From Bdellovibrionia bacterium (GTDB lineage Bacteria > Bdellovibrionota > Bdellovibrionia > Bdellovibrionales > JAGQZY01): a DNA stretch of 64,000 bases. Shown piece by piece: positions 26,717-44,327 of the stretch. Both the position numbers and the translations under genes were made by a program. The stretch lies in NCBI GenBank assembly GCA_030427805.1, contig JAUICP010000004.1, positions 350,705-414,704 of the forward strand. The letters run 5' to 3'. Below the pieces are notes generated by a model, which made no database searches, was not told the origin of the DNA, and saw only the letters and a program-made list of their open reading frames with translations. Every line of letters starts with the position of its first letter. Position 1 is the stretch's first letter.

Positions 26717-29700
26717 TTGAAAAAAATAACTCAGATTCGACACAATTTATTTCACTTCGCCTTTGATTTGGTAAATCACAAATCAATTGGCTCCCTATTA
26801 CCTCAAGCCTGCAAATTAGTTTTCACTCTTACACTTCCGATCTTACTCACCTCTTGTCTAGAAAAGTCAGGAAACGATCAGGTCTCATCGGGCACCCTTG
26901 GTCTCGAGCTAAAAATTATGTCGGGTAACAACCAAGATGGTGATCCCAATCGTCTTTACTCAGAGTCTTTAACGGTCATGGTCCAAGATGCTTCGGGAGA
27001 TGCCGTCAAAGATATCGAGGTTGAGTTCTTTGAAATTTCGTCCAAAGGGGCCTACGTAACAAATGCGTCGGGTAAAACCAATTCCAGTGGTCAAGTCTCA
27101 ACTGACGTGCGAGCACCAACCTCCCACGGAGCTAGCATTATTATCGGTGCGAGAATTAGAAATTCATCAACTGGTGTCGAGTTCAACTTATCAACTTCTG
27201 ATACTCCTGAAGGGGGACGATTTAAAGTAACGTCTACCAATTCTGGAACTGAAATGGCAGGTGATGCCTTTGGTTTTAAAGTTGAGCTTGTTGGTGAAAC
27301 CGGTGGCCTACTCGACTACAACGGCACCGTTACAACTCAGTGGCTCATCGACACTCAAGAAAGTTGGGGAAAGGTCGCTCCCAGTGTTTTACCAGCCACC
27401 TACGATTGTGTATTCATTGGCGGTGTTTGTGATATTCCAGCCATTGTTACTTTGACCGACGCTGAAAACATCACTTATATCTACATGGGGGATGGAGTCG
27501 AAGGTTTTCAGGACGTTTTTGCTCAACCTATCATCGTGCAAAAAAATGTGGCTGAAAAAGTCGTAGTCGTGAAAAACGCACCTGGAGGCCCCGCTGCCGG
27601 CGCTGAGGTTCTTGCCGATGAAATCCTCAACACCGATATGGCCATGTTTAAAATTTACGGAGCTATTACGGATAAGGCCGGGAACTACATTACCGATGCC
27701 GGCTCAGTCACATGGACTTCCGACCGAACAGAAATTACCAATAACCTGGTTGATAATGGCGATGGTTCAGCGGATTTCACTCCAGCTAAAACGATTCCAT
27801 TCCCAACCCGAGGAAAAATCTTTGCCGATGTCGCTCCCTATCCTCAAGGGTCCTCAGGAAATTTGGCAATTGACCCCGGAGCGCCTGCAGAAATTTTAAT
27901 GATTCCATCGGATAGTAACTACATTCGTACGGCTGGTGAATACATGAAGTTTCGCCTCGAGGTTCGAGATGCCAATAACAATCTGGTTGGACAAAACAAT
28001 ACCAACCAAGGTTATACTGGCGCAATCAATGTCAAACTCGAATTTGCTGACTATCTCAGTGATGACGAGGTGGCTGGAGGAGTTGTTCCGGAGGTCATGC
28101 TTCCTTCTGCGGATGGGGCCCCTGAATATTCGAGATTTGATTTCGAGTCTTTTCAGGCCACTGAGTACAATTTTGTGACTCAATTTTCCGCGGGCCTTTC
28201 TTCGGTCGGAGAGATTTCTAGAGGAATCGTTTTCTGGGATGGAACATCGGTCAGTCCAAAAATAACTGTGACAGCGACTAGCGCCTCCCTTGGTGATGTA
28301 TCGACCACGACAACTTTTAATGTCGTACCCGGCCCAGAATATCGAATTCAATTAAGAGACGGACCGGGCGCTAGTGGTAAATCGGTATGCGAAGCAAGGT
28401 ATGGTACTACTGCGGGTGATTCCACGTCGCTGGATGAATACTTTAGCGTCTACACCGGTGATCAGAATCAAGCAGGGAGACCGCAAGCTTCGAGCCCGTG
28501 TACAGGCATGAACTTTCAAGCTGGTGATGCTCCCGTTACGTTTTATTACGCCCTTGAGGATCGCGCTGGAAATTATCTTGGACCGGCTACGGCTTCCCTC
28601 GACTTAATGGTCAATTCATCTGCAACCAGTGATTTTGATGGTCAGTTTTCACCCGTTGGCACTTCAGCTTCGACGACTCTGACTCCTTTGGGAGTAACGA
28701 GCTCCAACGATAATTGGATCGATGTTATCGGGACCGTCAACGGAAGTACTATGTATTCCAGGTTCGAAGGCGATATTGATCCGGCAAATCTTGATAAATT
28801 CGTAATCGGTATGTACGATGGTGACGCTAGAAGGTTTAAAACTGACGGAGTCATTTTTGCTGGTAAAGTCAGAGAATTGCAAATTCGTGCTCTTGATCAG
28901 TATGGAAATACGATTAATAATTTCGGAACTACTTCATTCCCTTACAATCGTGATTTCAATATAGCACTCAGCGCCCCATTTAATCTATCGCCTAATGGCA
29001 CGCCTCCCTCATTTATTGGCCTCGGAAATCAAACACTGAGCTTCCAGGGCGGGGTCGCAAAATATTTCATTACCCTAACCAATACGAGCGATACACCGAC
29101 TTTAAGCATGACTGACCTTCATATGACAAATCCTAAGCCAGTCGATCCGCTCACCTTTGATATTCGGGCCGGCGATCCTAGTTATATAGAACTTCGAACG
29201 GCTCTCGATGGAGGTGGGGTTGATTACACTAATCAAGTGATGAACCTAACTACAGATGATGCCGTCGTTATTTTTGCAAATATCTTTGACGGCCTTGGAA
29301 ATTACAAAACTTGTAGTAATGTCGATTGGATCTATCCAGGTCTTACTTACTTTAACCCTGCCGACTCTATGGTATTTACTGATGTGGGTTGTTCAACTTT
29401 TCTTCAGCCGCAAAAACCCACCATCGCTGCATCTCGTTTGGGAGCATACTATACGTGGACCGATTCAGATGGAAATGACTTTATTATCACGGCTCAAACC
29501 GATGATATTACTGTCGATACAGGTAATCTCGCAACTATGCAAGTCGCTCCCGATAGTCTCAACCTTGAGGCCGGTGAAACTACAAATGTTACCGTTACCC
29601 TGAAGGATGCAAAGGGAAATACTCTCAGCGATACTGGAACCAAGGGTGTTGCAATAACTTCAGTTGATAATGGGATTACTAGACTGGGCCATGCACAATC

Positions 29701-32700
29701 TCTTTCGAATACCAGCAGCCTCGACTTCATTGCTGGAGAAGCAACTTTTACAGCGACTTTCTACAATTCAACAAAGACTCCTTCACTCAATTTATCGACG
29801 ACCTCTGCACCCTTTGTATCTGGGCAAACTTCGGCATTTACAATCACGTCGGCTCCTCTTGACCACCTTTGGTTACGAACCGGCGGCGGTCTGACAGAAG
29901 TTGACGCCGGTGTTAGTAATACTTATGCCATTTTCGCAGAAGATGCTTGGGGGAATCGACTCACAAGTGGTCTTGGCTCTGCGATCGACGTGACATTTGA
30001 ACTCACAAACCCGGCTCTTACGACTCAAGATATTCTATCGACAACACTGACTGGCGCAACGAGCGTGGCTGGACCAAACGACACTTCTGTCACTGGAAAT
30101 CTCACCGCCGGTGCAGCCCAGGTACAAGTGGTTTCGACAACAGCTGGAGAAATGCAAGTCAACGGAACGAGTACGGCTGGGATCATTGAAGGTAATAATA
30201 CAGAAGAGTATCTGCAAATTATGCCTCTTTCTACCATCGATCATATCTCCTTTAACCCGGCTCCAAAGCTGACCCATACGGCCAGTCCAAGTCTTCCGAT
30301 TTTTCCATTCAGTGTTGAATTGAGAGATATTTATGACAATGTGATTACAACCGAGAATAGCGAAACCATTGACATCACTCTCGACACTGGAACTGGTTCA
30401 ATTTCTGGAACGACAAACAAGTCTGTTTCGGCCGGTAAAGTTCAATTTGATGACCTTATTTATACAAAAGCTGAAGCAATCACGCTCAGGGCTTCTCTCG
30501 ATTCAGATGGCGGAAAAACAATCACCGCACCTATAACTGTCAATGTCGGTGGTGCAACACAATCTATCGTCGCTCTACCCGATCAAATCTTTACAGAGGG
30601 TGTTAGTAGCCTCGGAGCTGCCATTTCAGGCGGATCATTTAGTGGCACCAACGCCGTTGATGTGGGAACTCCATTTGTCGTCAAAGTCTATGTTGTCGAC
30701 GACGCCTTTAATAAATCCAGTGGCTATGGGTTTCCTGTGACCCTGACTTCGACGGATCCCAATGCCGTTATTTCAGCTCCAGTGGTGCCAATCGGTGGAG
30801 AAGCGACTTTCAACGTCACCATGAAAAGTCAGGGCAATCATACGTTTACTGCGAGTGCCTCTGGAGTCACTAATGAGGATAGCACCAGTTTTGCCGCTAA
30901 CCCGTTAGCGGCAAGCCAACTTCTCGTCTTACTTCCAGGGCAAGTCTTAGAAGAGGGAGCCGATAATCTCGATGATGCCATCGATAACCCCGCCACTACA
31001 ACACAAACAGCTGGCACTGCCTTCAATGTCACTGTTGTCGCCGTTGACAATTACTACAACAAAGTGACTGACAAGGATGGCTCGTCTGTGTCAATAACAA
31101 CTTCAGATCCAAATGATGCTCATCCATCCTCCGAAAACTTGGCTAGTGGTGAAGCCACATTCTCTGTAACAAACTTGACGGCACTGAGTAACCAAAAGGT
31201 TGTTCCGTCGGGCGCTGCGATTACTCCTAGAGATTCTGAACTCTATGATATCGCCCCAGGAACAGCCATAAAAACAATTGTTCGCATGCCGGGTCAGAGC
31301 CACAACCCGGGAACAATCTCCTACGGGACCGCTTTACAGAATGCAGCCTCAGACCAGGCTGCAGGAGTTTCTTTTACCGTTGATGTCTACGCCGTTGATG
31401 CCTACTTTAACATCGATACCAACTACAATGGCGCTCTATCAATTGTAACTCCAGGCGATCCCAACGATACGGAACCCGTCGCTCCTACCAATTTCTCAAG
31501 TGGACAGGCCTCATTCACAATCAACCCTGTAAAAGCAAATTCAGGTCAGCAGATTAGTGTCTCTTCAGGTCTCAACGATGTCGCCCACGCACCAGCCTCC
31601 TATGATGTGAACCCCGGAGCGAAAAGATTTTTACTTTCACTTTTTGACAATCAAAGCCTTACCCAAGGTGTAACGTCCTTAGCAGCCGCAGTGACTCCAA
31701 CTGCTATTCCGGCAAAGAATGCCGGAGATTCAATTAACATCACAGTTTATGGAACTGATATCCATTATAATGTTATCAATGATGGGAGTCTCGTCAGTGT
31801 ATCCACAACGGCTCCAAATGATGACCACCCTGCTGCTAAAAACTTGGTAAGCGGAAGCACTACATTTACCATTCAAAATTATAAATCCGGGACAGGCTAT
31901 ACAGTTAGTGCATCCGGAGGTGGATACCCAGTTAGCCAAGCCTCTAATACATACAATATAAATGCGGGCTCAGTAACCAATGTGATCGCTCTGCTCCCTG
32001 GTGAAAGCTTGAGTGAAGGACACGATACATTTGCCGAAGCGTCTTCAGGAAATCCTTCGGATCAAACCAATGGTGTTTATTTTCCCGTCACTCTTTACTC
32101 GACTGATAACTATTATAATAGAGTGAATAGTTCCGTGACCGTCGATATCTCTGCACCCCTCGGAACGGCGGCCAGCTCTGGCTCGACCAGTTTTGCTGGC
32201 GGGAGCATGGTACAAATCAATCTACAACATAGTGCTTCCGGCTCTAATCAGGTTGTACGTCCAAGTAGTACTCTTAACGATATTGATTCTGACCAGTATG
32301 ATGTTGTCGCATCTCTTTCAGCACCAACTCTCGCCCTTTCTGACCCTAATACGAGTTCGACTAGCTATGCTCGACAACAAAATATCGATGTGAATATTAC
32401 CAACGGAGCCACCATTGCTTTTTGGTGTCTCAGTGAATCACAAAGTTCAAATCCAAGTCTTGGTGTTAACAACCGCGGAACCTGTACCGGAGGTACGGGC
32501 GGAGCTGGTGCCGGATGGCATTCGTCTAAGCCAGGTGGTTTTAATCTCAGTGCTGGAGACGGAAATAAGACAGTTTACCTCTGGGTTGCGGATAGCGCTA
32601 ACAACGTCTATGGAACTGCTGAATCCGACACCATCTACTTAAAAACGAGCAAGCCTGCCGTTCCATCGGTCGCTCTCGAAGACCCAGATTCTTCATCGAC

Positions 32701-35700
32701 AACACATACAAACAACCTCACGACCGACCTCACAATTACTGGAGATACCGATGCGGTTGCTTGGTGGGTCGACGAAAGAGCTGATGCCGCTTCTGCCCCG
32801 AGCGCACCTCTTTATAATGATGGAGCTTGGCTTGGTACAAGACCTACCACAATTGATATGGGTGGAAACGGCCTAAGAAAAGTCTATGTTTATACAAAAG
32901 ATATTGCGGATAATGTCTCTGTTTCTGCAGCGACACAAACAATCTACTATGATCCAGTTGCTCCAGGTGGTGCACTTAGTATTGTCGGAGTCGCCGGTGG
33001 TGCCGTTGATAGTACCTATGATACAACATTGAGTGCAAGCCTGACTCCTACCATTGCTTTCTTACCAGCCACCGACGCGACATCAATTACCTATACTATG
33101 AATGTCCAAACTCTTGCCAGTGCTGATGCCTGCACTCCTGAAGTGGTTACATCGTCAGACCCCCTTGAGTTTACGGGGTGTACCCTCACTGACGGTGTTA
33201 CTTATAAAGTACTATTAACAGCAACCGATCAAGCCGGTAACATTTCTGCCGCCAGTAACAGTGGTACTTTTCAATTTACCGTGGTCGACGGGCTCGCACA
33301 GTTTGTCGTGACGAAAGTGCTTCCTGGTAATGCGGTTTCTGATACCTCTTTCGATATTCAAATCGAGGCACAAAATGCTGGTGGTAGTACTGTCACAGCC
33401 TATGACGGATTTAAAACAATAGACTTTTCAACGGACGGAAGTAACGGTGGCACGAGATGTGGGGCCAGTGGCGGCGCACTTATTCCAAGTACTCCTGGTC
33501 AAGATGCCTCGATCAATTTCAGCAATGGTTTTGCCACAGTTTCTGTGACCCTCAAAAAAGCGGAATCGGGAGTGAGTATTTCCGTGCAAGAAGATGGTTC
33601 CGCTGTTGCCGGGACTCTCAGCGGCCTTACCGTCGATGCGGGAGCACAAAATTGTATTCGCATTGAAACCGCTAACGATGGAAGTGGCGCTTTACTAGGC
33701 GCCCAAGCATTGAGTATCGATGGAATTTTCTCAGCACACGCTGTGGCTTATGACTCACAAGGAAACTTCCTTAGTTCTCCGAGTGTCAACTGGTCGGGTT
33801 CAGCTGATCTAGCCCAACTTCCTATTCCTACAACAGGCAGCAGTACTACTATTGTTGCCTCTAAATTAGGTTCAGGGAATCTTACTGCAAGTGGCTCTTC
33901 GGACAGTGTTTCCGTTACAGTTTCTGGGGGTACCGTCGACCGTAGCTTTACTTCTAGTAGCTTCGATAACGAGAGTGTTAATCATCTTGAAGACGATAGT
34001 ATTGAACTCATTAAGCAATGGGATGTGAGTAGCGATAATGTTGTCGCCTGGAGAACTGACTCTGGTCTCAGTTGGCACACCGAAACTAAAGGAACAACAA
34101 CCCGTGGTACTCGGGCCAATTTCCCCCTTCAAGCGCGACTTGCCTTGACTTCAGACAGTCTAGAGATTCTTGATGCCGCTTCAAACGATCTCTTTATGCG
34201 TTTTGATCGCGGCCCAGGGTTAGCTCTAGATACGGGCCTTGGTAGCATCACTTCTCTCGATGCAAGAGATGGAATGATCTTTCTTGGCTATGACGATAGT
34301 ACAAATGGAGCTCTAGTCATAATTGATTTGGCCAATGATAATTTTCATAGACTGACGGCAAGTGATAATCTTATTTTCAACAGGGACATTTCCCAAAGAA
34401 ATTCTGCCGGCACGTGGAGCGGCGGCACATCGGGCTATCCACAACTCACAACATCCGGCGATAGGGTCTACTCTTTGGCTGCCCATAATGACGGAACTGA
34501 CTCCTTTGTCGCGGTAGGTACACAAAATGGTATCAATGTACTTAGACTTACGGGCACACCAGGTACCTTTAAAAATACGACGGCGAACCCTGTACAACAG
34601 ATCCAAATTGCCTCTGACGATAAACTCTACTTTTTTGAAGAGACTGTCGGTCTCAATCGATCCGATATATCCTTGCCCCTGGGCAGTGACTTCCCTGTGG
34701 ATCACACCTATACTCTGACTTCAGCAGGCGAGCTACTTACCCTTGATGCCAATGGCATGAGCCTGCAAGAATCAAGGTCCGCTGCTGATCCGGGACAGAA
34801 CCTTATATTTATCGCAAGTGATAAGGGCCTTTCCGCCATCCACGAACACTCAACCGATACCAGTGCCGAGTCAAAGAACTTTGTACTCAGCGGAAGTGGA
34901 TCTTATCCTTTTTCGGGGGCACTCGCTCTAGACGGTACATCAGGAACTCTCTCTATTGCCAACTCCGCGAGTATGACAAATAGTTTAACTATCGAATTCT
35001 GGTTTAAGCCTGATGCGACATTAAATAGTGGAAGTGCTGCTTCTGGAATATTTTCAGTTGGAAGTCCAACCGTAGATGGTTTCATGGGCCTCACCCACAA
35101 CGCAAGTGCTGACGGTAAACTTGAGTTTTCAGTTCGTCACTCTGGCTCTACCTATAAAGTCGCTAGTACTGAAACCTCATTCTCTGCCAATACATGGTAC
35201 CACGTAGCGGTTACTATCGATGGGGCCAGCGGAATTGATATGTGGATTAATGGAAACAACAATCAATTCAACCCTATCGATCTCTCCGGATTTACTCCAG
35301 AGGGGGCCAGTAATTTGATTTTCGGTAGTGATGGTACTAATTATTTTGCGGGACTTATCGACGAAATTCGAATTTCATCTTCTGCGGTTTATTCGACAGC
35401 CAGTTTTGCGGTTCCAGGAACGGAACTGTCTAATGTAGGCGCTATTCACCTCTTCCATCTCAACGAAAACAGTGGTGGTACTGCTGCTTATTCTGATACC
35501 GATGCCATGGTCAATGGGACTCTCGGTGGAAATTCTCTTTTTGTTTATCCACTGATTCCGGGAAGTTCTCAAAGCATTAAGGATCTTAGCTCGATCACCC
35601 ATTCAGGATCGACTTCCACACAAATTATCACATCAAACTACTGGTATGAAATATCTAACTCTGATGATGTTGAAGGTACCACTTCGAGTATGAGTGACAG

Positions 35701-35815
35701 TCTCAGCCTCGGGAGTGGAGTCAACCAAGCCGAAGTGTACAATATTGATTCTTCAACTGACTACGACCTACTCCTCGGGACACCAGCCAATGGTTTACGC
35801 ACTCTTAGAGAGTAG
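26717..35815 (+). CDS. giant surface lipoprotein (3032 aa) with many Ig-like beta-sandwich repeats and a C-terminal LamG/concanavalin-like domain
   Basis: The TTG start lies 7 nt after GAGGAA. The lipobox is ...LPILLTSC. Long T/S/G/N/D/V-rich repeats have the recurring pattern A..F.VTV.A.D..GN. The C-terminal LamG-type signature at about 34900-35400 reads LTIEFWFKPD...WYHVAVTIDG...NYFAGLIDEIRISS. Confidence 0.85.
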   Translation: MKKITQIRHNLFHFAFDLVNHKSIGSLLPQACKLVFTLTLPILLTSCLEKSGNDQVSSGTLGLELKIMSGNNQDGDPNRLYSESLTVMVQDASGDAVKDIEVEFFEISSKGAYVTNASGKTNSSGQVSTDVRAPTSHGASIIIGARIRNSSTGVEFNLSTSDTPEGGRFKVTSTNSGTEMAGDAFGFKVELVGETGGLLDYNGTVTTQWLIDTQESWGKVAPSVLPATYDCVFIGGVCDIPAIVTLTDAENITYIYMGDGVEGFQDVFAQPIIVQKNVAEKVVVVKNAPGGPAAGAEVLADEILNTDMAMFKIYGAITDKAGNYITDAGSVTWTSDRTEITNNLVDNGDGSADFTPAKTIPFPTRGKIFADVAPYPQGSSGNLAIDPGAPAEILMIPSDSNYIRTAGEYMKFRLEVRDANNNLVGQNNTNQGYTGAINVKLEFADYLSDDEVAGGVVPEVMLPSADGAPEYSRFDFESFQATEYNFVTQFSAGLSSVGEISRGIVFWDGTSVSPKITVTATSASLGDVSTTTTFNVVPGPEYRIQLRDGPGASGKSVCEARYGTTAGDSTSLDEYFSVYTGDQNQAGRPQASSPCTGMNFQAGDAPVTFYYALEDRAGNYLGPATASLDLMVNSSATSDFDGQFSPVGTSASTTLTPLGVTSSNDNWIDVIGTVNGSTMYSRFEGDIDPANLDKFVIGMYDGDARRFKTDGVIFAGKVRELQIRALDQYGNTINNFGTTSFPYNRDFNIALSAPFNLSPNGTPPSFIGLGNQTLSFQGGVAKYFITLTNTSDTPTLSMTDLHMTNPKPVDPLTFDIRAGDPSYIELRTALDGGGVDYTNQVMNLTTDDAVVIFANIFDGLGNYKTCSNVDWIYPGLTYFNPADSMVFTDVGCSTFLQPQKPTIAASRLGAYYTWTDSDGNDFIITAQTDDITVDTGNLATMQVAPDSLNLEAGETTNVTVTLKDAKGNTLSDTGTKGVAITSVDNGITRLGHAQSLSNTSSLDFIAGEATFTATFYNSTKTPSLNLSTTSAPFVSGQTSAFTITSAPLDHLWLRTGGGLTEVDAGVSNTYAIFAEDAWGNRLTSGLGSAIDVTFELTNPALTTQDILSTTLTGATSVAGPNDTSVTGNLTAGAAQVQVVSTTAGEMQVNGTSTAGIIEGNNTEEYLQIMPLSTIDHISFNPAPKLTHTASPSLPIFPFSVELRDIYDNVITTENSETIDITLDTGTGSISGTTNKSVSAGKVQFDDLIYTKAEAITLRASLDSDGGKTITAPITVNVGGATQSIVALPDQIFTEGVSSLGAAISGGSFSGTNAVDVGTPFVVKVYVVDDAFNKSSGYGFPVTLTSTDPNAVISAPVVPIGGEATFNVTMKSQGNHTFTASASGVTNEDSTSFAANPLAASQLLVLLPGQVLEEGADNLDDAIDNPATTTQTAGTAFNVTVVAVDNYYNKVTDKDGSSVSITTSDPNDAHPSSENLASGEATFSVTNLTALSNQKVVPSGAAITPRDSELYDIAPGTAIKTIVRMPGQSHNPGTISYGTALQNAASDQAAGVSFTVDVYAVDAYFNIDTNYNGALSIVTPGDPNDTEPVAPTNFSSGQASFTINPVKANSGQQISVSSGLNDVAHAPASYDVNPGAKRFLLSLFDNQSLTQGVTSLAAAVTPTAIPAKNAGDSINITVYGTDIHYNVINDGSLVSVSTTAPNDDHPAAKNLVSGSTTFTIQNYKSGTGYTVSASGGGYPVSQASNTYNINAGSVTNVIALLPGESLSEGHDTFAEASSGNPSDQTNGVYFPVTLYSTDNYYNRVNSSVTVDISAPLGTAASSGSTSFAGGSMVQINLQHSASGSNQVVRPSSTLNDIDSDQYDVVASLSAPTLALSDPNTSSTSYARQQNIDVNITNGATIAFWCLSESQSSNPSLGVNNRGTCTGGTGGAGAGWHSSKPGGFNLSAGDGNKTVYLWVADSANNVYGTAESDTIYLKTSKPAVPSVALEDPDSSSTTHTNNLTTDLTITGDTDAVAWWVDERADAASAPSAPLYNDGAWLGTRPTTIDMGGNGLRKVYVYTKDIADNVSVSAATQTIYYDPVAPGGALSIVGVAGGAVDSTYDTTLSASLTPTIAFLPATDATSITYTMNVQTLASADACTPEVVTSSDPLEFTGCTLTDGVTYKVLLTATDQAGNISAASNSGTFQFTVVDGLAQFVVTKVLPGNAVSDTSFDIQIEAQNAGGSTVTAYDGFKTIDFSTDGSNGGTRCGASGGALIPSTPGQDASINFSNGFATVSVTLKKAESGVSISVQEDGSAVAGTLSGLTVDAGAQNCIRIETANDGSGALLGAQALSIDGIFSAHAVAYDSQGNFLSSPSVNWSGSADLAQLPIPTTGSSTTIVASKLGSGNLTASGSSDSVSVTVSGGTVDRSFTSSSFDNESVNHLEDDSIELIKQWDVSSDNVVAWRTDSGLSWHTETKGTTTRGTRANFPLQARLALTSDSLEILDAASNDLFMRFDRGPGLALDTGLGSITSLDARDGMIFLGYDDSTNGALVIIDLANDNFHRLTASDNLIFNRDISQRNSAGTWSGGTSGYPQLTTSGDRVYSLAAHNDGTDSFVAVGTQNGINVLRLTGTPGTFKNTTANPVQQIQIASDDKLYFFEETVGLNRSDISLPLGSDFPVDHTYTLTSAGELLTLDANGMSLQESRSAADPGQNLIFIASDKGLSAIHEHSTDTSAESKNFVLSGSGSYPFSGALALDGTSGTLSIANSASMTNSLTIEFWFKPDATLNSGSAASGIFSVGSPTVDGFMGLTHNASADGKLEFSVRHSGSTYKVASTETSFSANTWYHVAVTIDGASGIDMWINGNNNQFNPIDLSGFTPEGASNLIFGSDGTNYFAGLIDEIRISSSAVYSTASFAVPGTELSNVGAIHLFHLNENSGGTAAYSDTDAMVNGTLGGNSLFVYPLIPGSSQSIKDLSSITHSGSTSTQIITSNYWYEISNSDDVEGTTSSMSDSLSLGSGVNQAEVYNIDSSTDYDLLLGTPANGLRTLRE
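30562..32330 (+). repeat. five tandem ~118-aa (about 354-nt) divergent coding repeats inside the giant lipoprotein
   Basis: Repeat units begin at about 30562 (ALPDQIFTEG), 30918 (LLPGQVLEEG), 31272 (RMPGQSHNPG), 31627 (SLFDNQSLTQG) and 31981 (LLPGESLSEG). Each unit contains F.V.VYAVD.YYN...S..DPND...P..L.SG.A.F. Confidence 0.8.
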
Positions 35816-35885
35816 AAACTGACCCAGTTTAATGTTGGGCACTAAATCAATGCGCCTGGCTCCCCTAATGCAGTATCTCTAATCC

Positions 35886-36770: not shown

Positions 36771-36811
36771 TTCACTTTATAAATTGAATCCAAATTCTTT
36801 GATTGAGGGAT

Positions 36812-36959: not shown

Positions 36960-36989
36960 GTTCCAAAAACACAGGAATTTGGGTCAGTT

Positions 36990-37592
36990 TTATTGCTGAT
37001 CCCATTTTTCGATGGTCTCAATAAGAACTTTTCGCCTCCGAGCGAATTCATCAGCATTCGATGTAGCAAGGGCCTCTGTCAGCGAAACACTGGCCATAAA
37101 TCGTTCCCCATTACTAAGACTCTGATCCTTTTCGAGGAGTCTCATCCAGCGAATCAATTGGTCGTTTGGCGACTTTCCGAGTGAACGAAAAAGAGTTAAA
37201 CGAACCTGCGAAGATCTGTCATTGTACAATCGATTCATTGCTTGAAAGCTCGCTTCACTGGGAAAGTAAGGTAAGGTCCTTGCAGCAATGGTTCTAAATT
37301 CTGGAGACGAAGATTTTTCCATTTCCATCGCCTTTTTAAAGGCATAGAATTGTCCTTCTGAAGCCAGGTATTCCATGGCGTCGGCCACCTTTGCAAGATC
37401 CCCGTTCTTCCAATCTTCTAGGACCGATAAACTATCGCGCTCGCGCTTAGAAGCCGCTCGATCTGATTGAACCTTTTTAAAGGCCCCGTAGAGACCAATA
37501 CTAACGATTGTAAGACCGATTAAGAAAAATGAATTTTTAAGAAACCACTGTTTCGCCTTAGAAACTTCTGTCGTGTTTTCATTAAGGTCCAT
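36990..37592 (-). CDS. single-TM helical-repeat (HEAT-like) protein, last gene of the stator operon
   Basis: The ATG at 37592 lies 9 nt after GGAG and overlaps the motB end by 11 nt. The TM segment is FFLIGLTIVSIGLYGAF. The rest is alpha-helical repeat-like (RTIAARTLPYF...QVRLTLFRSLGKS). Confidence 0.6.
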   Translation of the reverse strand: MDLNENTTEVSKAKQWFLKNSFFLIGLTIVSIGLYGAFKKVQSDRAASKRERDSLSVLEDWKNGDLAKVADAMEYLASEGQFYAFKKAMEMEKSSSPEFRTIAARTLPYFPSEASFQAMNRLYNDRSSQVRLTLFRSLGKSPNDQLIRWMRLLEKDQSLSNGERFMASVSLTEALATSNADEFARRRKVLIETIEKWDQQ

Positions 37593-38328
37593 TTGACTCA
37601 TCTCCGAATTGCGGCGGAGCCACAGCAGGACTCGGCTGCTTAACAATTCCAGGAGCGACAACCTTTAAAACCACTCGGCGATTCAGCTCCCTATTTTCGG
37701 GAATAACATCGCCGTCCCTATTGCGATTGGGAAAGGCCGGACGCCCCTCTCCATACCCCATGGCGACCAGTAAATGCTTTGGATACCCCGCCTTCTCGAA
37801 AACCTTAACGACAGTCGCAGCGCGGGCCGCGCTCAACTCCCAGTTTGACGGAAACTTTTCAGTTGAAATAGGTATATCATCAGTATGGCCCGCCACTAGA
37901 ATTTCTGCTGAATTCACTGTTTCAAAGATAACCTGGGTTAAAGTTTCAAGACTGGCTTGGGCCTCGGGTAGCATATCGGCTGAGCCTAACTTAAAGAGTA
38001 AAACTGACCGAAAGGTAATTTCTAATCCATCTTTGACTGGATTGAGCTGAAGTTCCGATATAATACCGGTATCTTCCATTTCTTCTTTCAGTTCCTCTAA
38101 CTGCTTTGCTAACTCTTCATAAGGAACCGAATAGGTTCCTCCAAATTGTTTAGCAACGCTCTTTTTCATTTCTTCCTGACTGGTTTCTTTGGAGGCAGAA
38201 AAGACGTACATCAAAACAAAAAAACCAAAGAGCAAAGTCATCATATCAGAATAGGAGATGAGCCAAATTTCATCGTTTTCTCCACCGCCTGAGTGATCAT
38301 TTAAAGGAGAGGACTTGTGATCTAACAT
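37582..38328 (-). CDS. motB: MotB-type stator protein with an OmpA-like peptidoglycan-binding domain
   Basis: The N-terminal plug/TM region with the conserved Asp is IWLISYSDMMTLLFGFFVLMY. The C-terminal OmpA-like block is VAGHTDDIPISTEKFPSNWELSAARAATVV...NRRVVL. The ATG shares one nt with the motA stop. Confidence 0.85.
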   Translation of the reverse strand: MLDHKSSPLNDHSGGGENDEIWLISYSDMMTLLFGFFVLMYVFSASKETSQEEMKKSVAKQFGGTYSVPYEELAKQLEELKEEMEDTGIISELQLNPVKDGLEITFRSVLLFKLGSADMLPEAQASLETLTQVIFETVNSAEILVAGHTDDIPISTEKFPSNWELSAARAATVVKVFEKAGYPKHLLVAMGYGEGRPAFPNRNRDGDVIPENRELNRRVVLKVVAPGIVKQPSPAVAPPQFGDESNGP

Positions 38329-39131
38329 CAGGCCGCCTTTTGCGAACTCGAATTAATAGATTTCCAATCCACCCGTTCCGCGGGAAGGAGGTAGGAATTG
38401 AGTTCTTCGACCATGATGACGCGATTCTTATTTTCGGCGATGAGCTTCAGACCTTCGGCAACCAAGCGGTTTTTGATCCAAAGTTCTTTGGCACCATCTT
38501 CGAGGTGATCGGCGATGGGTAAAATAATTAAATTGGCAAAGGCGATTCCATAAAGAGTTGCAACGAGTGCAACCGCCATAGCTGGACCAATGGTTTTTTC
38601 TGCACCTGGCTTACCAATTTCTTTAAGTAGCGCAATCATACCCAATACCGCTCCCATGAGACCCATTGCTGGAGGGAACTTGCCAAGGGCTTTAAAACGT
38701 CTGGCGTCCTCAGAATACCGGTTGTATATGGTCATCGCACGAACGGAGAGAACCTCGTGAAGTTTCTCAGGGTCCATATAACCTTCAGCGAGCAGCATCA
38801 CTCCTTCTTTTACAAAGTGATCCTTAATACTCGGGTAAATATTTTCGTAGGATTCACCCTTGCGCCTTTTCTCGGCAACAAGAAGGAGTTCCTTCATCAC
38901 ATCGACGTATTCGACTTTGTAGGTTCGAATGACTCGCAAATAGAAAATCTTCATCATTAAAATAATTCGATCCATTTGCAGTGAGATAGCCGCCACTGCC
39001 ATAGTCCCACCGAAAACGATGAGTGCGGCGTGCCAGTCGACAAAAGCCATAAAGTCATCGGTGGCCGAATAAACGCCAAAGACGAAGACAAAGACTGCGA
39101 GGAGTAAAGAGGCAATCGACGAAATGTTCAT
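38328..39131 (-). CDS. motA: MotA/PomA-type stator channel protein
   Basis: At 267 aa with four TM segments it has normal MotA size. The conserved prolines are in context: GKFPPAMGLMGAVLGMI and LYGIAFANLIILPIADHL. A charged cytoplasmic loop is present (VAEKRRKGESYE). Confidence 0.85.
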   Translation of the reverse strand: MNISSIASLLLAVFVFVFGVYSATDDFMAFVDWHAALIVFGGTMAVAAISLQMDRIILMMKIFYLRVIRTYKVEYVDVMKELLLVAEKRRKGESYENIYPSIKDHFVKEGVMLLAEGYMDPEKLHEVLSVRAMTIYNRYSEDARRFKALGKFPPAMGLMGAVLGMIALLKEIGKPGAEKTIGPAMAVALVATLYGIAFANLIILPIADHLEDGAKELWIKNRLVAEGLKLIAENKNRVIMVEELNSYLLPAERVDWKSINSSSQKAA

Positions 39132-39152: not shown

Positions 39153-39737
39153 CTAAAAACTAAGTCCTGCAAAAAATCGAAAAACTGTGGCATCGACAGT
39201 CACTGAGGAAATCCCCGTCCCACGGGTCGCAGTAAACTGAAACTCCACATTTGTTTTTTCGAGAACTCTGTAGAGAGCTCCAATATTAAATCCGTACTCG
39301 AATAAGGTCGACTGTACAGTCAATGCGGGAGTCGGCGTATCGAGGATGAGTTGTGATATCCCGAGTTGCCATCCGGCAAAAAATCGTCTCTTTGGAGACA
39401 TGGACAAACTACCGACATCGGAATCAATATCCGTGGTTCTACCTTTTGAGAGAAAATACAATTTCTGCCCACCACCCGCAAAAAGGTAGCGATATTGAGC
39501 TTCGGCAGGGTCCAAGGCGATGATCGCGTTGGCGTATATTGACGTGCTCTCAGATATGAAAATCTCAAATTCCCCGTCAACGCTGGTAATTAAACTAAAA
39601 TCTCCAGACTGCGCTCCGGTAAACGAAGTCGAAATCAAGCCAGAACGCAAGTGTAACTGCAGGTCAAGAGCACTGACTTCTAGTGCAAAGAGAGCAAAGC
39701 CCATAAATACAAGACAGAATCTAAGCCACCTGGTCAT
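39153..39737 (-). CDS. small outer-membrane beta-barrel protein
   Basis: The signal peptide is MTRWLRFCLVFMGFALFALEVSA. The sequence alternates between hydrophobic and polar residues in beta-strand fashion. The C-terminus is ...VFRFFAGLSF, with a terminal Phe. The gene overlaps the upstream gene by 17 nt. Confidence 0.65.
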   Translation of the reverse strand: MTRWLRFCLVFMGFALFALEVSALDLQLHLRSGLISTSFTGAQSGDFSLITSVDGEFEIFISESTSIYANAIIALDPAEAQYRYLFAGGGQKLYFLSKGRTTDIDSDVGSLSMSPKRRFFAGWQLGISQLILDTPTPALTVQSTLFEYGFNIGALYRVLEKTNVEFQFTATRGTGISSVTVDATVFRFFAGLSF

Positions 39738-41700
39738 TTTGACTCCGCCCCCTGTAAAATTGCTCTAACCAATTATCGGCCAATCTCTCAGCCTCTGTTC
39801 TAAAGCTCGTATTATTCTTTACCACCTCGCGAGTCATATTAAGGAATGATCTCAGGTTTAGATCTTTCTCTGCCAAAACCGTGCGCTTTCGACTATCTGA
39901 TAATTCAATTTGCTCGATCTCGGCATCAATAATGTCTCTAATTTTCGAACCACTAAACCCACTTAAAATCTTATCTTTTTGTAGGTCTTCGAGACCGTAA
40001 ATCAGTTCCGCCCGCTTTGACAGTGGCCACTTCTCAAGGGAGAAGTTTAATATCTCATTTGGCAATTCAAATAGAAGATTCATCGGGTAGATATCCATAA
40101 CAATTTCAAAAGCCTTAGCCTTTGGCACTGACTCAATAAGTCTCTGGTATAGAAAGTTTTCTTTCTCTGGACCAGCTTCGCGCAAGAGCTGAGGAATTCT
40201 CTCAACAAAAGGAGATGACTCTTGGCGATGGCTTCCGACAACCTGATCAATGGTTTGTTTGATTTCTTTTTGCCTCGACGCAAGAGCCTCTTTATCAAAT
40301 TCAACACTAATACTCGTTACTCGCTCGACCTCTTTTGGCGTCAGGAGATTCAAAATTTGCGCGACCTGAAGAGTCGGCAAAACGTTTAGAATCAAGGCTC
40401 CCACAATTTCGTTCTGGCGAATAGCATCACAACATTCTTGGGGAGAAAGACCTGAGATCAATTCAACGAGGTCATCACTGAGCCCCTCTTCTGGCTTGAT
40501 TCTCAGCTGCACAATCTGTTTTGAAATATAGAGTGAAGCCACTTGGCGCTCGCGGGCACCAGTATTGATCTCTGTCGCTTCAGCCCAACGCCTTCTCTCA
40601 TCTCGATCAAGACGACTCACAATGGGCTCCATAAATTCAGAGCCAAGAAATTCCGGTAATACCGCCACCGCATACTGTGGTTCTTTATGACTCGAAGCAA
40701 GCCATCCTTTAATAAGGATCGCAGCGTCTCCTGGACGCGATTGAATCAACTTTTTAAATTCATTAAATCCTCGAGCTAACTCATCATCACTAAGTGCCGT
40801 AAAATCTTCTTCTTTAGTTGCTCGATCTTCATTCTCTATGTATCGAGCCCGTGCATCGGCCTCTTCTCTTTCACTTTTGGCCTGCATAATTGCAATTCTT
40901 TGACTCTCGAACTTTTGATACCGAGAAGAAACGACAAGTCCTAAAAGGAAAAGAACAAAGGTCGAAAGTATGATACCAATCGGAATCTTGAACTCAACGA
41001 GCCAATCCATAACCGTTTTCTCAGGAATTTTCGCTGTAGCCTTCTCTTCCGAAGCAAGGTCCTTTTGCCCTTCGTTTTTTTCCTCTTCTTTTTTAGCGAG
41101 TTCTTCTTTTGTTGGCTCAGGAGGTCTCTTTAATGCAATTGTTTGGGACTGTAGACTGGGCTCCGGAAGACTACTACTGGTAACTATTTGCTGAATGAGT
41201 GTTTGCGCCTTTTGATTAACATCTTCGCTCACTTCTTCATCGACAATAAAGAGAATTTGCACAGAAGATACGTAATCCTCAAAGGGACGAACATTTAATC
41301 GAGTCACGCGCTGAACACTCTGGGGCCTCTTGTAAAGACCCAGTTTTGTGAGTGGCAAGAGTGGCTCACTCGCTTGATTTCCCTGTGGCTCGTAGACAAT
41401 CGTCTCTTCGATTTGTCTTGGAAGGTCTTGTCTCATCAGAGCTGTGTTTAAATTAATTTTTACTGATAGGGAAATCTCATCTTTTTTCAAAAAGTTGAGA
41501 AGAGTCGACGTAATTTTCTGCTCCAGGCGGTACTCCGCCTCTGATCGTCTTTCTGCCATGTATTTTAAAAATGAGGTGGTATCTGCTTCGGCACCATAGA
41601 CGGATAAAGTCCCCATCAATGCAGTGAGACACGAAGCCATTCCCAAGAGTTGGCGCTTATTAAATTCTAACTTGAAAACACGAAGTAGAAATAGAAGCAC
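39721..41700 (-). CDS. membrane-anchored FliG-like protein with a periplasmic FliF/YscJ-like ring-building motif (659 aa)
   Basis: The N-terminal signal is followed by about 200 aa that include ISLSVKINL...SSVQILFIVDEEVSEDVNQKAQTLIQQIV, which has the RBM-like alpha-beta-beta-alpha pattern. The TM segment is IPIGIILSTFVLFLLGLVVSS. The cytoplasmic part shows the three FliG-type helical modules: YAVAVLPEFLGSEFMEPIVSRL; NEIVGALILNVLPTLQVAQILNLLTPKEVERVTSIS; PLSKRAELIYGLEDLQKDKILSGFSGSKIRDIIDAEIEQIE. The GTG start shares one nt with the upstream stop. Confidence 0.55.
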   Translation of the reverse strand: MLLFLLRVFKLEFNKRQLLGMASCLTALMGTLSVYGAEADTTSFLKYMAERRSEAEYRLEQKITSTLLNFLKKDEISLSVKINLNTALMRQDLPRQIEETIVYEPQGNQASEPLLPLTKLGLYKRPQSVQRVTRLNVRPFEDYVSSVQILFIVDEEVSEDVNQKAQTLIQQIVTSSSLPEPSLQSQTIALKRPPEPTKEELAKKEEEKNEGQKDLASEEKATAKIPEKTVMDWLVEFKIPIGIILSTFVLFLLGLVVSSRYQKFESQRIAIMQAKSEREEADARARYIENEDRATKEEDFTALSDDELARGFNEFKKLIQSRPGDAAILIKGWLASSHKEPQYAVAVLPEFLGSEFMEPIVSRLDRDERRRWAEATEINTGARERQVASLYISKQIVQLRIKPEEGLSDDLVELISGLSPQECCDAIRQNEIVGALILNVLPTLQVAQILNLLTPKEVERVTSISVEFDKEALASRQKEIKQTIDQVVGSHRQESSPFVERIPQLLREAGPEKENFLYQRLIESVPKAKAFEIVMDIYPMNLLFELPNEILNFSLEKWPLSKRAELIYGLEDLQKDKILSGFSGSKIRDIIDAEIEQIELSDSRKRTVLAEKDLNLRSFLNMTREVVKNNTSFRTEAERLADNWLEQFYRGRSQNDQVA

Positions 41701-42377
41701 TAGTTTCCACCTCCACCAGTATTTGCTGGCAATCGACCCCGACCCAATCGCTTTTCAATGTATTGAATAATATTTCTTGTTTCTGGATTATTGGGTTCGT
41801 ATCGTACCGCTTCTCTGAATGAGCTTAGGGCCCGAACAAAGTCGTTCTTCAACAGATAAATCCCACCCTTCAGTTCGTGTATGACTGAAAGCCTTGGCTC
41901 CTTCTCTCTGAGTTTTTCAAGTCGTTCTAATGCCACATCGTAATTACCTTCGCGGGCCAAGTTTTGACTATCAAAGAGTTCCGAAATAAGTTCATTTTTT
42001 AATTTGGCTTCGCTAGCCTCTTTTAAAAGGGCCTCTTGTTCGGCTTCTTCACTATCGGACTCTGGTAAATCTGTTCTTTTACTCAGGCGGATATTTAACT
42101 TCAAATCAAAACTAGAATCGACCTCAGTTAACAAAACATTTTGCGGTATATATCCGTCCTTTTCGAAGAAAATTAAAATCGGTCCACTTCCCTCAACGAG
42201 GCTTTCAAGCTGAGAACTGGAAAGAGCCAGTGGAGTTTCCCCCGCCGGAACTCGTTTCGAGCCATCCATACGACGCACTTCAACTTTTGCGCCCGTTGGA
42301 AGTGAATCAACCGACACATTATTCGTTGCACATGAAACCGTAAAAACCAGTAAAGGCCATAAATAACAGACTCTCAT
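41700..42377 (-). CDS. lipoprotein with a PEGA domain and a TPR C-terminus
   Basis: The signal/lipobox-like sequence is MRVCYLWPLLVFTVSC. The PEGA pattern is SLPTGAKVEV...GETPL...ILIFFEKDGY. The TPR-like segment is GNYDVALERLEKLREKEPRLSVIHELKGGIYLLKNDFVRALSSFREAVRYEPNN. Confidence 0.65.
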   Translation of the reverse strand: MRVCYLWPLLVFTVSCATNNVSVDSLPTGAKVEVRRMDGSKRVPAGETPLALSSSQLESLVEGSGPILIFFEKDGYIPQNVLLTEVDSSFDLKLNIRLSKRTDLPESDSEEAEQEALLKEASEAKLKNELISELFDSQNLAREGNYDVALERLEKLREKEPRLSVIHELKGGIYLLKNDFVRALSSFREAVRYEPNNPETRNIIQYIEKRLGRGRLPANTGGGGN

Positions 42378-42432: not shown

Positions 42433-43506
42433 TTGAAATTTGTTTCTCGGTCTAGGTTTTCTTCTTTAAAATGGGGAGTGATCTTAAAAAGAATTGTTCC
42501 CATCAGTCTAATCATTTTCTCCGTGGTGTTTTTCTACTTAGCACTTCAGGACCAATTCTCGATCGTAAAGAAGTATTTGTTCAAACCACCCCAGGGCCAA
42601 GAACTGGGCTGGATCTCAGAGAAGTCGAACAACGTCCTTAGACGATCTTTCGGAACTCCCTCTTATTTCGGAATAAATCAAGATGATGGGGTTTTCAATC
42701 TCGATTACATTTTTTCTGGTGAAGCTTCGTTTGTAACGGTTAATTTATCAGAACGATCATCAGTGAAGATTTTAGATAAAAGCCTAGTCATTTTCAGAAG
42801 CGAAAATGGAAAGACAGTAATCGATCTCAGAGATGGAAAGATGGAGTTAGACGTTGATCCTAAGGATCAAATAAAAATCAAAACCCAGAAAGAACGTCTC
42901 GACGTTTTAGGAGAAGAGCAAACCCAGATTAAGGTGTCCACAAAAGATGGTTTGTCGTTTTTAGAGGGCGGCGCAAGTGGTGGAAAAATCAGTCATAATG
43001 GTCTAACTCATGACCTCAGTGAGGCGGCTTACGGCATCGACGAAGAAGGTAAAGGAACTTCGACCGCTGATCTAGCGAGTTCAGAAAAGTCAGGAGAACT
43101 GGAACCCGATCAAAGTCAGGCGCGGCTTCCCGGTGGTGTTTCTGAAATGAAGGACATCCCCAAGGACCTTAAACGAAGAAATATTCCTGTTCCATATCCT
43201 CCAAATCAAATCGTTCTCTTTCATAAAAAGGGAATTGAACTTTTGGTTTATCCTCGAAAAACCTGTAAGGGTGAGTGTAAGATAAAGCTCTTTTATAATG
43301 AGAAACTCATAAAAACCGCTGGATTTAAGAATGGGGAAGAACCTTTTATTAGTCTCAAGGCTAATAAGGAACTCAACGGAGTTTTTACCTGGACCTATAT
43401 CGACTTTTCAGGACAGAAATCCGGAAGCTTTGAAGTCCGCAAATTTAATTCTGATGAATTAAAAAAGGCCATGAAAAATTCTAAACAAATCGAGATAGTT
43501 AACTAA
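42433..43506 (+). CDS. membrane-anchored protein with a FecR-like beta domain (hypothetical)
   Basis: The TM segment is IVPISLIIFSVVFFYLAL. The segment ASFVTVNLSERSSVKILDKSLVIFRSENGKTVIDLRDGKMELDV is FecR-like by eye. The start is uncertain (TTG 42433 or GTG 42478). Confidence 0.5.
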   Translation: MKFVSRSRFSSLKWGVILKRIVPISLIIFSVVFFYLALQDQFSIVKKYLFKPPQGQELGWISEKSNNVLRRSFGTPSYFGINQDDGVFNLDYIFSGEASFVTVNLSERSSVKILDKSLVIFRSENGKTVIDLRDGKMELDVDPKDQIKIKTQKERLDVLGEEQTQIKVSTKDGLSFLEGGASGGKISHNGLTHDLSEAAYGIDEEGKGTSTADLASSEKSGELEPDQSQARLPGGVSEMKDIPKDLKRRNIPVPYPPNQIVLFHKKGIELLVYPRKTCKGECKIKLFYNEKLIKTAGFKNGEEPFISLKANKELNGVFTWTYIDFSGQKSGSFEVRKFNSDELKKAMKNSKQIEIVN

Positions 43507-43550
43507 ATTACTAGACTCCATTCGTTTCAAAAAAGAACCGAAAAAAACTT

Positions 43551-44327
43551 ATGAAGAATTTTTTGCTAGGCATTGCCGCCATCAGCATTTTTCTTAGTTT
43601 TGCGAGCATCCAAGTCAGCTTGGTTCTGAGCTTTGTCTGCCTTGTCATAACTGCACTTACTTTTAGAGAGCTACTTATCGAGCTTGAAAGTACGAATCAA
43701 ACCAACAGTACGGCCTTGACGATCAGCTCTCCAGAAGAGCCCCTCGAAATTTCAAGCGAAGAAATCAACTGGAATTCGATGGCAAAGACTCTCATCGCCG
43801 ATAAGTCCCATAAAATCAGCAGCGAAGAAGACTTACTAGAGTATATTGAAGATATTGAGTTTAGCCCAACCGATGAAATCGAAATTGAAAATTCTTGGGC
43901 ACAAATTGTGAGTCTTAAAAAACCTGAAAATGGTGTATCACTTTCAAGCCTTCAAAGCCTGGAGGCTTCGCTCACGGACCTGGATTTAAACAGAGAGGAT
44001 ACCCTTCTGGTCACTGATCTCGATTTCGGCCAAGAAAGTCACCTTTCATTAGCAAGTCTCATTAAAAAGAGAGTTCCCCTATCCAGAGTGATTTGCACGA
44101 AAATATTTGGTCGGGCCGATTTGATTCCCCTCATCGGAAACTTGCAAAATATCGGACTTCAGGAAATTACCAAGTTCTTTCAAGAACTCGAATCGAAATA
44201 CACCAACGTCTATTTTATTCTTTCAGACTCTCAATACATTCAGTGGGAAGCGGTGGTCCGAAGACTCAACTCTACTCGTCTTGTTGAGGAAGTTAAAATT
44301 CAAGAAGAACCTAGGCCGTACGCTTAA
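43551..44327 (+). CDS. hypothetical membrane protein (two N-terminal TM segments, acidic middle)
   Basis: The hydrophobic N-terminus is MKNFLLGIAAISIFLSFASIQVSLVLSFVCLVITALTF. No motif was recognised. Confidence 0.5.
   Translation: MKNFLLGIAAISIFLSFASIQVSLVLSFVCLVITALTFRELLIELESTNQTNSTALTISSPEEPLEISSEEINWNSMAKTLIADKSHKISSEEDLLEYIEDIEFSPTDEIEIENSWAQIVSLKKPENGVSLSSLQSLEASLTDLDLNREDTLLVTDLDFGQESHLSLASLIKKRVPLSRVICTKIFGRADLIPLIGNLQNIGLQEITKFFQELESKYTNVYFILSDSQYIQWEAVVRRLNSTRLVEEVKIQEEPRPYA

Follow-up and report, generated by a model that had tools for sequence, protein, structure and literature searches.

A natural FliF–FliG-like fusion protein encoded beside a flagellar-type stator in Bdellovibrionota: a candidate minimal rotor outside the flagellum

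In a 64-kb stretch of DNA from a Bdellovibrionia genome (hereafter the window, at its full length), the open reading frame (ORF) at 39721–41700 on the minus strand encodes a protein of 659 aa in which a FliF-like periplasmic domain, one transmembrane (TM) helix and a FliG-like cytoplasmic region are joined in a single chain. The homology and the predicted fold established here indicate that this fusion protein descends from the flagellar rotor; its predicted topology places the FliG-like part in the cytoplasm, and its gene is linked to motAB genes and to a conserved set of genes for envelope proteins. We consider it probable that the protein, of FliF and FliG origin, forms a minimal “switchless” rotor ring, and that a stator of its own turns this ring as part of an envelope machine other than the flagellum.

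Results

Homology to FliG and FliF

The FliG origin of the cytoplasmic region is indicated by sequence profiles and by predicted structure. A family profile built from 127 members and searched against all PDB sequences found the middle and C-terminal domains of Thermotoga FliG (3ajc, E = 1.3e-9; profile 404–601 to chain 12–205) and Salmonella FliG (8umx, E = 8e-6; profile 397–596 to chain 107–301). An engineered Vibrio FliF–FliG fusion (8z4d) was matched at E = 4.5e-7 over four stretches, three of them co-linear, which include the second TM helix (TM2) and the C-terminal stretch of FliF as well as FliG_MC. The N-domain of MgtE (2oux) was matched at E = 7e-3, over 85 residues only. Searched against 5.8 billion proteins, the profile retrieved, besides the query, a bona fide FliG with the Pfam domains FliG_N, FliG_M and FliG_C at E = 5e-6, and the hhalign comparison of the family with a FliG alignment gave a probability of 87% (E = 3.8e-6) over FliG M and C.

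The full-length AlphaFold2 (AF2) model, computed from an input alignment of 136 sequences, has a mean predicted local distance difference test (pLDDT) score of 85.9, with 464 residues at 90 or above. When this model was compared with the PDB by Foldseek, the top 12 matches were all FliG chains (probability 1.0, 214–329 columns aligned). The 12 include full-length Aquifex FliG (3hjl). The first seven are full-length chains of 310–331 residues, aligned over 314–329 columns, and the best is Salmonella 8umx_B (E = 6.9e-5, probability 1.0, 326 columns against a chain of 328 residues); the three-domain, all-helical N-M-C architecture of FliG is recovered in this comparison, and MgtE follows far behind at E = 0.65.

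Conserved positions of the FliG_C-like domain are E514 (96%), P539 (100%), R624 (100%), and W644 (94%). The invariant P539 occupies the position of the MFXF hinge, and hhalign sets the invariant R624 against an Arg of the last FliG helix that is itself invariant. At the positions of the FliM-binding motif EHPQR of FliG_M, the window protein reads RQNEI, and the family shows no consensus (profile alignment, hhalign). The thresholds of the curated FliG families (PF14842, PF14841, and PF01706) are not reached, the homology being visible at the profile level only, and in Pfam scans of single relatives (n = 70) the MgtE_N model, which shares the FliG-type helical repeat fold, was matched by 47 (best E = 2.1e-7).

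On the FliF side, the family profile matched the FliF structures 8z5s and 6scn at E of about 4e-4. Profile positions 35–76 align to Vibrio FliF 268–309, which we take to be the start of its third ring-building motif (RBM3), and positions 224–323 align to FliF 466–559, covering TM2 and the C-terminal FliG-binding helices. The family consensus PExAAxLxKxWI is set there against Vibrio FliF NEPELAAQVVKNWMND, with W333 conserved at 99%; these helices are recognisable in sequence, and by this alignment the FliG-binding C-terminus of FliF is retained in the fusion protein.

The periplasmic domain modelled alone (residues 37–195) has a pLDDT of 84.5, and its ten best Foldseek matches are all FliF MS- or S-ring chains (probability 0.98–0.99, TM-score about 0.46–0.54), with EscJ 11th and PrgK 23rd in the list. 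A preliminary description of this DNA, made without database searches, had called the domain “FliF/YscJ-like”; the RBM fold was borne out, with FliF RBM3 as its best counterpart, and the likeness to YscJ proved to be the lower one. From its N-terminal hydrophobic segment to its TM helix, the fusion protein has a single RBM. It lacks RBM1 and RBM2, which in flagella surround the export gate at the membrane side of the MS-ring. FliF RBM3 carries a beta-collar between its first two strands, and the fusion protein has at this position a conserved insert of 48 residues, modelled at low confidence, which holds the most conserved periplasmic motif of the family (consensus SKLGLxxP; K119 98%, G121, and P126). 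The YscJ_FliF models (PF01514, PF08345) have no match in the window protein or in the 70 relatives, one of which matched SpoIIIAH.

Topology and domain map

Hydropathy analysis revealed a strong internal TM segment at about 239–259 and a weaker N-terminal hydrophobic stretch at 18–36; the N-terminal peak is present in 115 of the 129 full-length relatives. The basic run SSRYQKFESQR stands C-terminal of the TM segment, and the content of lysine plus arginine is higher after the TM segment than before it in 89 of these relatives (equal in 26, lower in 14). This positive-inside pattern and the N-terminal peak put the C-terminal part of about 400 aa on the cytoplasmic side. A third hydrophobic stretch (431–454), weakly over the threshold with a peak of 1.87, falls within the confidently modelled, all-helical FliG_M-like domain and is read as a buried soluble helix, not as a TM segment.

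In the AF2 model, the periplasmic part is composed of helix 39–67, strand 76–84, the low-confidence insert at about 92–139, strand 144–153, helix 159–175, and strand 182–187. The TM helix runs on as a single long charged helix to residue 297, and residues 305–658 are all helical. The domain map, for which profile matches, the AF2 model, Foldseek, and hhalign were combined, is given in Table 1.

Much of what the preliminary description had read from the letters agrees with these results. The ORF and all the peptides quoted from it are present in the 659-aa translation, and the guessed secondary structure coincides with modelled strands 76–84 (ISLSVKINL) and 144–153 (VSSVQILFIV) and with helix 159–175 (EDVNQKAQTLIQQIVTS). 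The single TM helix with positive residues on its C-terminal side, the cytoplasmic FliG-like part of about 400 aa, and the MgtE-N/FliG-type helical repeats were recovered as well. Two outcomes had been named beforehand as counting against the proposal, a periplasmic FliG-like part and unrelated folds: the former part came out as cytoplasmic, the N-terminal part has in prediction the RBM fold of FliF rings, and the C-terminal part resembles FliG by profile, hhalign, and Foldseek alike.

The protein family

Exhaustive HMMER scanning of 1.84 billion representative proteins yielded 294 relatives at E ≤ 1e-3, each standing for a cluster, and 75 of them at E ≤ 1e-30. In a species-level scan, a copy with 94% identity turned up in a Bdellovibrionia metagenome-assembled genome (MAG; locus L001), and an ortholog in a Pseudobdellovibrionaceae MAG (L002) has about 58–59% identity, conserved along the whole length, and the same gene order. 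Judged from this full-length ortholog and the 294 relatives, the fusion protein is not a chance ORF. The relatives are mostly of 600–750 aa and have a common layout: an N-terminal hydrophobic signal, about 160–330 periplasmic residues, a TM segment, and about 400 cytoplasmic residues.

The members named in their sources are all called “hypothetical protein” and come from Bdellovibrionia, Bdellovibrionales, Bacteriovoracaceae or Oligoflexia (Bdellovibrionota); for the MAG of one member, one source gives the label Methylotenera and a second gives Oligoflexia. A word-indexed protein search with the single window protein returned the query alone, and the family was found by the exhaustive HMMER scan; our guess is that the E/K-rich linker fills the candidate list of the word-indexed search. 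Searching the PDB with the window protein sequence gave noise only.

Stator and gene neighbourhood

The fusion gene stands second in a compact operon on the minus strand, with the order TPR (tetratricopeptide repeat) lipoprotein, fusion gene, 194-aa gene, MotA, MotB, HEAT-repeat protein. Its GTG start codon and the stop codon of the preceding gene overlap, and the sequence GGAGGTG lies a few bases upstream of the start.

The location of the gene next to motAB had been noticed in the preliminary description, and the family matches agree (MotA PF01618, E = 4.8e-21; MotB_plug 3.3e-15; OmpA 2.8e-13), as does the presence of the quoted MotA loop (VAEKRRKGESYE). In the PDB, MotA is matched along its full length by MotA 9lu9 (3.7e-27) and PomA 8bri (2e-25), and its best NCBIfam matches are the flagellar motor, PomA, MotP, and MotA families, with TolQ at just 7e-4. 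By these matches the stator of the cluster is of the flagellar type, not of the Tol/Exb type. The NCBIfam equivalog cut-offs are not reached (131 bits vs. 237 for MotA, 160 bits vs. 283 for MotB), and the pair forms a diverged stator subfamily. We also considered the Zorya system or another defence system: PADLOC found no ZorA, ZorC, ZorD or ZorE, the only similarity being the generic one of ZorB to MotB, and this assignment was rejected. The cluster MotA proteins (window, L002–L008) share a C-terminal motif EELNS[YF]LxPxxRxDW that PomA lacks; it may be a signature of this stator subfamily or the place where a partner binds.

The FliG torque helix (E. coli R281, D288, and D289) faces MotA R90/E98. 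In the candidate torque helix of the fusion protein, at residues 584–600, the family conserves G584; positions 586 and 588 are each basic in 79% of members, position 589 is acidic in 96%, and position 594 in 98%. E594 aligns to the position of E. coli FliG D288, and a hydrophobic residue stands at the position of D289. In the stator, the position of PomA R88 (E. coli R90) is basic in all seven cluster MotA proteins compared. From the sequences, charge complementarity between the torque helix and the MotA loop is plausible at most, the match to the charged ridge of FliG being partial.

We examined ten places: the window, eight further loci with DNA, and the P0046 contig without DNA, with family members down to 18–28% identity to the window protein. 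An ortholog of the PEGA/TPR protein stands immediately upstream of the fusion gene in 9/9 loci with DNA, and orthologs of the 194-aa protein were found in seven. The motAB genes lie within three genes of the fusion gene in eight of the ten places (window, L001 as judged by ORF sizes, L002–L005, L007, and L008). A giant protein with Ig/fn3 repeats, counted in 8/9 loci with DNA, adjoins the fusion gene in the window, L001 (a convergent ORF of 2401 aa), L002–L005, and L007–L009, its homologs in L002, L004, and L009 having 2200 to at least 3960 aa; it was not seen in the short L006. Neither the Pfam scan of the 36 largest ORFs of the window nor the eight other loci revealed a flagellar gene. Across the places examined, the fusion gene is inherited together with a stator of the flagellar type and a constant group of envelope proteins.

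In L007 (7388–14027) and L008 (1983–6350), more unannotated genes surround the fusion gene (451/492, 552, and 476 aa), and motAB are on the opposite strand. Since these extra genes and the flipped motAB occur in the most distant loci, the accessory parts vary between lineages.

Features of the cluster and its surroundings

Table 1. Features of the fusion protein and of the surrounding gene cluster in the window
Feature	Position	Strand	Basis
FliF/FliG-like fusion protein, 659 aa	39721..41700	-	ORF, family search, profile search, AF2 model, Foldseek
Signal peptide or membrane anchor, residues 1–36	41593..41700	-	Hydropathy
RBM, alpha-beta-[insert]-beta-alpha-beta, residues 39–187, closest to FliF RBM3 (S-ring)	41140..41586	-	AF2, Foldseek, profile
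Insert between RBM strands 1 and 2, residues 92–139	41284..41427	-	Low pLDDT in monomer models
Transmembrane helix, residues 239–259	40924..40986	-	Hydropathy, AF2
Spacer helix, charged, residues 260–297			AF2 model
FliF_C-like, two helices, residues 305–335	40696..40788	-	Profile alignment, AF2, conservation
FliG_N-like helical domain, residues 339–401	40498..40686	-	Boundaries read from model helices
FliG_M-like (ARM) domain, residues 409–492	40225..40476	-	Profile, hhalign
FliG_C-like domain, residues 497–658	39727..40212	-	Profile, hhalign, conservation
Candidate torque helix, residues 584–600, GSKIRDIIDAEIEQIEL	39901..39951	-	Conservation and alignment
Lipoprotein, 225 aa, PEGA-like N-terminal domain and TPR repeats	41700..42377	-	PEGA-like motif read from sequence
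194-aa protein with signal peptide, alternating-hydrophobic pattern, C-terminal F	39153..39737	-	Sequence pattern
MotA, flagellar-stator type	38328..39131	-	PF01618, E = 4.8e-21
MotB with plug, TM Asp (YSDMMTLL), OmpA-like peptidoglycan-binding domain	37582..38328	-	PF13677, PF00691
HEAT-repeat protein, 223 aa, single TM, last gene of the operon	36990..37661	-	Orthologs recognisable in L002 and L003
Giant protein, 3032 aa, with lipobox (LLTSC), Big_1 Ig-like and C-terminal LamG-like domains	26717..35815	+	Convergent to operon
FecR-like protein (357 aa) and 258-aa protein, divergent from operon	42433..44327	+	Pfam and locus comparison

The PEGA-like domain of the 225-aa lipoprotein has no Pfam match, and the profile search of the PDB with this protein gave generic TPR matches only. 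The 194-aa protein has neither a Pfam match nor a PDB match, the profile search included; we take its sequence pattern to be that of a small outer-membrane beta-barrel. The HEAT-repeat gene as listed overlaps motB by 80 nt, and because of this overlap its true start is probably an internal Met (MSQMDLNE...). The HEAT-repeat protein has 223 aa in the window and L001 and 349–364 aa in L002 and L003. Truncation of the gene by an insertion sequence (IS) element was ruled out, as the same 223-aa gene is found in L001, the 94%-identical relative, which has no IS.

The IS element in question, IS1-family-like, is at 35816–36990 and fills the exact interval from the stop codon of the HEAT gene to that of the convergent giant gene. 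Its transposase ORF (294 aa, 35886–36770) matches NF033558 at 1.3e-15, under the cut-off, and the ends of the element are 20-nt imperfect terminal inverted repeats. In L001, where about 18 bp separate the HEAT and giant genes, the element is missing, which is why we regard the insertion as recent. The giant protein of the window, a predicted lipoprotein, has two Pfam matches, Big_1 near the N-terminus and Laminin_G_3 at 2739–2890, with about 2500 unassigned residues between them.

On the other side of the operon, the FecR-domain protein has homologs in L002 and L003, and the 258-aa protein, for which no family match was found, has a homolog in L003 (the stretches concerned are L002 299–1336 and L003 1661–3540); in L001, ORFs of both lengths (357 aa and 258 aa) stand at matching positions. 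This arrangement suggests a dedicated regulatory or envelope-signalling pair. The cluster is flanked by a HAMP-SpoIIE (PP2C) membrane phosphatase (44311–46125, minus strand) and by a 618-aa Ser/Thr protein kinase (24704–26560, minus strand), and L001 has an ORF of 604 aa, the same length as the phosphatase, at the corresponding position. Perhaps these two enzymes regulate the cluster by phosphorylation. Elsewhere in the window, three large minus-strand ORFs (3316–5139, 9264–10832, and 10861–14715; 607, 522, and 1284 aa) have no Pfam match at E ≤ 1e-3. A scan for promoters and terminators gave sites no more frequent than expected by chance.

Discussion

The RBM domains form rings in FliF, SctJ, and SpoIIIAG. 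We suppose that the RBM of the fusion protein would likewise assemble a ring in the membrane, and the attached FliG_C-like domains would make up a cytoplasmic ring just beneath it. The MotA5B2 units encoded in the operon, anchored to peptidoglycan via MotB, would use ion flow to push the charged helix 584–600 and so turn the ring. A chemotactic (CheY-controlled) switch is not expected, because the FliM/FliN-binding motif has been lost. The machine would not be a flagellum, since RBM1/RBM2, the export gate, the rod, and the hook are lacking; without the last three, the output would have to leave via the periplasmic face of the ring. From this face, which includes the conserved insert, movement or force may be transmitted to the PEGA/TPR protein, the barrel-like protein, and the giant Ig/LamG lipoprotein. 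The natural, “much shortened” FliF–FliG fusion of the preliminary description is well supported by the homology to both proteins and by the linkage to MotAB; for its “minimal rotor”, we infer ring formation, rotation, and output.

Several observations weigh against this proposal. On the FliF side, the sequence match to RBM3 is weak (domain E of about 1), and the Foldseek E values of the periplasmic domain against FliF are 3e-3 to 2e-2. For the window protein itself, neither Pfam nor NCBIfam gives a match at E ≤ 1, the FliG models give 2–4 weak matches per model in the 70 relatives (FliG_N in 4/70), MgtE_N being far commoner, and the FliG_N-like domain is assigned from the predicted structure alone. 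MotAB are not in view at L009 or on the P0046 contig. At the presumed torque interface, the residues equivalent to MotA E96/E98 are not acidic in register, acidic residues standing two and five positions earlier, and K586/R588 flank the position of R281 without occupying it. The early claim that this region matches the FliG torque helix in spacing is borne out in part: E594 stands at the D288 position and the charges are conserved, the basic residues flank R281, and the D289 position has a hydrophobic residue.

Alternatively, the protein might be a regulator or sensor, with the helical repeats acting as a ligand- or Mg2+-sensing or protein-binding module similar to the MgtE N-domain and with the FliG likeness reflecting the superfamily fold. 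MgtE_N is indeed the commonest Pfam match of the family (47 of 70 relatives), and 2oux is found at 7e-3. However, the profile matches FliG at 1.3e-9 over about 200 residues (M and C), compared with 85 for MgtE; Foldseek ranks FliG at 6.9e-5 and MgtE at 0.65; MgtE has nothing that corresponds to the FliG_C region, to the C-terminal segment of FliF or to the FliF-like RBM; and the tight operon with MotAB would be left unexplained. We regard a regulator as quite improbable. Still less credible, to the point of near dismissal, is that the fusion protein represents the genuine, diverged MS-ring/C-ring protein of the organism’s flagellum and MotAB its ordinary stator. This would suit the flagellar type of MotA and the fact that FliF–FliG fusions support rings and flagellar function in Salmonella and Vibrio (PMC6079021, PMC11481574), but the protein has neither RBM1 nor RBM2, the seat of the export gate, and no longer keeps the EHPQR motif for FliM binding; its conserved partners do not belong to flagella; and neither the cluster nor the 36 largest ORFs of the window nor the eight other loci contain flagellar genes. 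Moreover, Bdellovibrio swims by a conventional polar flagellum (PMC13104615).

A ring that does not rotate has to be taken more seriously, unlikely as we find it. Such a static ring would dock MotAB, its FliG-like domain serving only to recruit and activate the stators, and stator rotation or pulling would energise an outer-membrane process, as in the Ton/Tol and GldLM systems. The giant surface protein might, for example, be exported, anchored or cycled between conformations in this way. The conserved linkage to the barrel-like protein, the PEGA/TPR periplasmic protein, and the giant surface lipoprotein fits this explanation, as does the absence of a rod or hook to carry rotation outward. Nevertheless, the stator is of the flagellar type with a large cytoplasmic torque interface, and the protein has kept the FliG_C-like domain in full, with its conserved charged helix. 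In every case known to us, the pairing of FliG_C with a flagellar-type stator turns the FliG ring, and we therefore prefer the rotating ring.

Compared with the flagellar rotor, the fusion protein shares the RBM3-like domain with an insert at the collar position, the TM helix, the FliF_C segment, the FliG N-M-C domains, the charged helix, and MotA/MotB alongside. It differs in being one chain instead of two, in the absence of RBM1/RBM2 and EHPQR, in remaining under every Pfam and NCBIfam threshold for FliF and FliG, and in having as its partners the PEGA/TPR, barrel-like, and giant Ig/LamG proteins, with no genes for FliM/FliN, export, rod, hook or filament among the ORFs scanned nearby. The FliF–FliG fusions of Salmonella and Vibrio, engineered or arisen as spontaneous mutants, show that a 1:1 covalent rotor can assemble rings (PMC11481574, PMC6079021). 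The order of parts is the same in these fusions (e.g., 8z4d) and in the window protein; however, the former consist of full-length flagellar proteins in a complete flagellum, whereas the latter is natural, with a much shorter FliF side and a non-flagellar context.

A natural FliF–FliG fusion is not wholly without precedent: Chlamydiaceae possess one of about 330 aa (Bergeron 2016, PMC4768692). It combines an RBM2-like domain and one further RBM, without the SpoIIIAG-like (RBM3) domain, with a cytoplasmic part that is FliG_M-like only and lacks the torque C-domain, and it was proposed to act with the injectisome, not with MotAB (PMC4768692). Both fusions are natural and join a shortened FliF to a FliG-like cytoplasmic part in a context without a flagellum, but the Bdellovibrionota family keeps RBM3, FliF_C, all three FliG domains, and the linkage to MotAB, being in this sense the complement of the chlamydial one.

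The other comparisons are more remote. GldLM of Bacteroidota, an ion-driven 5:2 inner-membrane motor that is not homologous to MotAB, is tied to outer-membrane components and to the giant adhesin SprB (PMC13104615). The resemblance of this gliding and type IX secretion system (T9SS) motor to our cluster is by analogy only (an inner-membrane ion motor, outer-membrane parts, and a giant repeat adhesin); the GldLM system has no FliG-like rotor, and no T9SS genes were seen here. The MgtE N-domain shares the FliG-superfamily helical repeat fold with the fusion protein; however, MgtE_N accounts for just a part of the region, with scores far poorer than those of FliG, and the CBS and channel domains of MgtE are missing from the fusion.

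In our search of the literature on the fused rotor system and related topics, we found no description of it. A 2025 survey of MotAB and its non-flagellar relatives includes neither FliF nor a fusion, treats FliG only as the flagellar partner, and refers to Bdellovibrio only for AglRS (PMC12505986). As far as the literature searched shows, the system of a fused FliF–FliG rotor with MotAB is undescribed.

The gliding motor of Bdellovibrio-like predators is still unidentified according to a 2026 review (PMC13104615), and a rotor–stator pair encoded beside a giant adhesin-like protein is an obvious candidate for it. [quoted passage not shown] We put this forward as a speculation that has a real chance of being correct, if a rather small one.

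Conclusions

To our knowledge, the rotor–stator pair of FliF/FliG and MotAB has been known only within the flagellum. If our proposal is true, the torque core occurs in Bdellovibrionota in a free-standing form: fused, without the switch, the export gate, and the axial parts, and wired to other envelope proteins. This would show the core that generates torque to be capable of functioning and evolving independently. It also bears on the question of whether a rotor–stator pair could have existed earlier than the type III export apparatus or separately from it. With one rotor protein and two stator proteins, it would also be an unusually simple system for studying torque in vitro. For the family itself, an annotation would become available to members whose named representatives are now all “hypothetical protein”. 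For the Bdellovibrio-like predators, the cluster gives a concrete and testable candidate for their unidentified gliding or surface machinery (PMC13104615).

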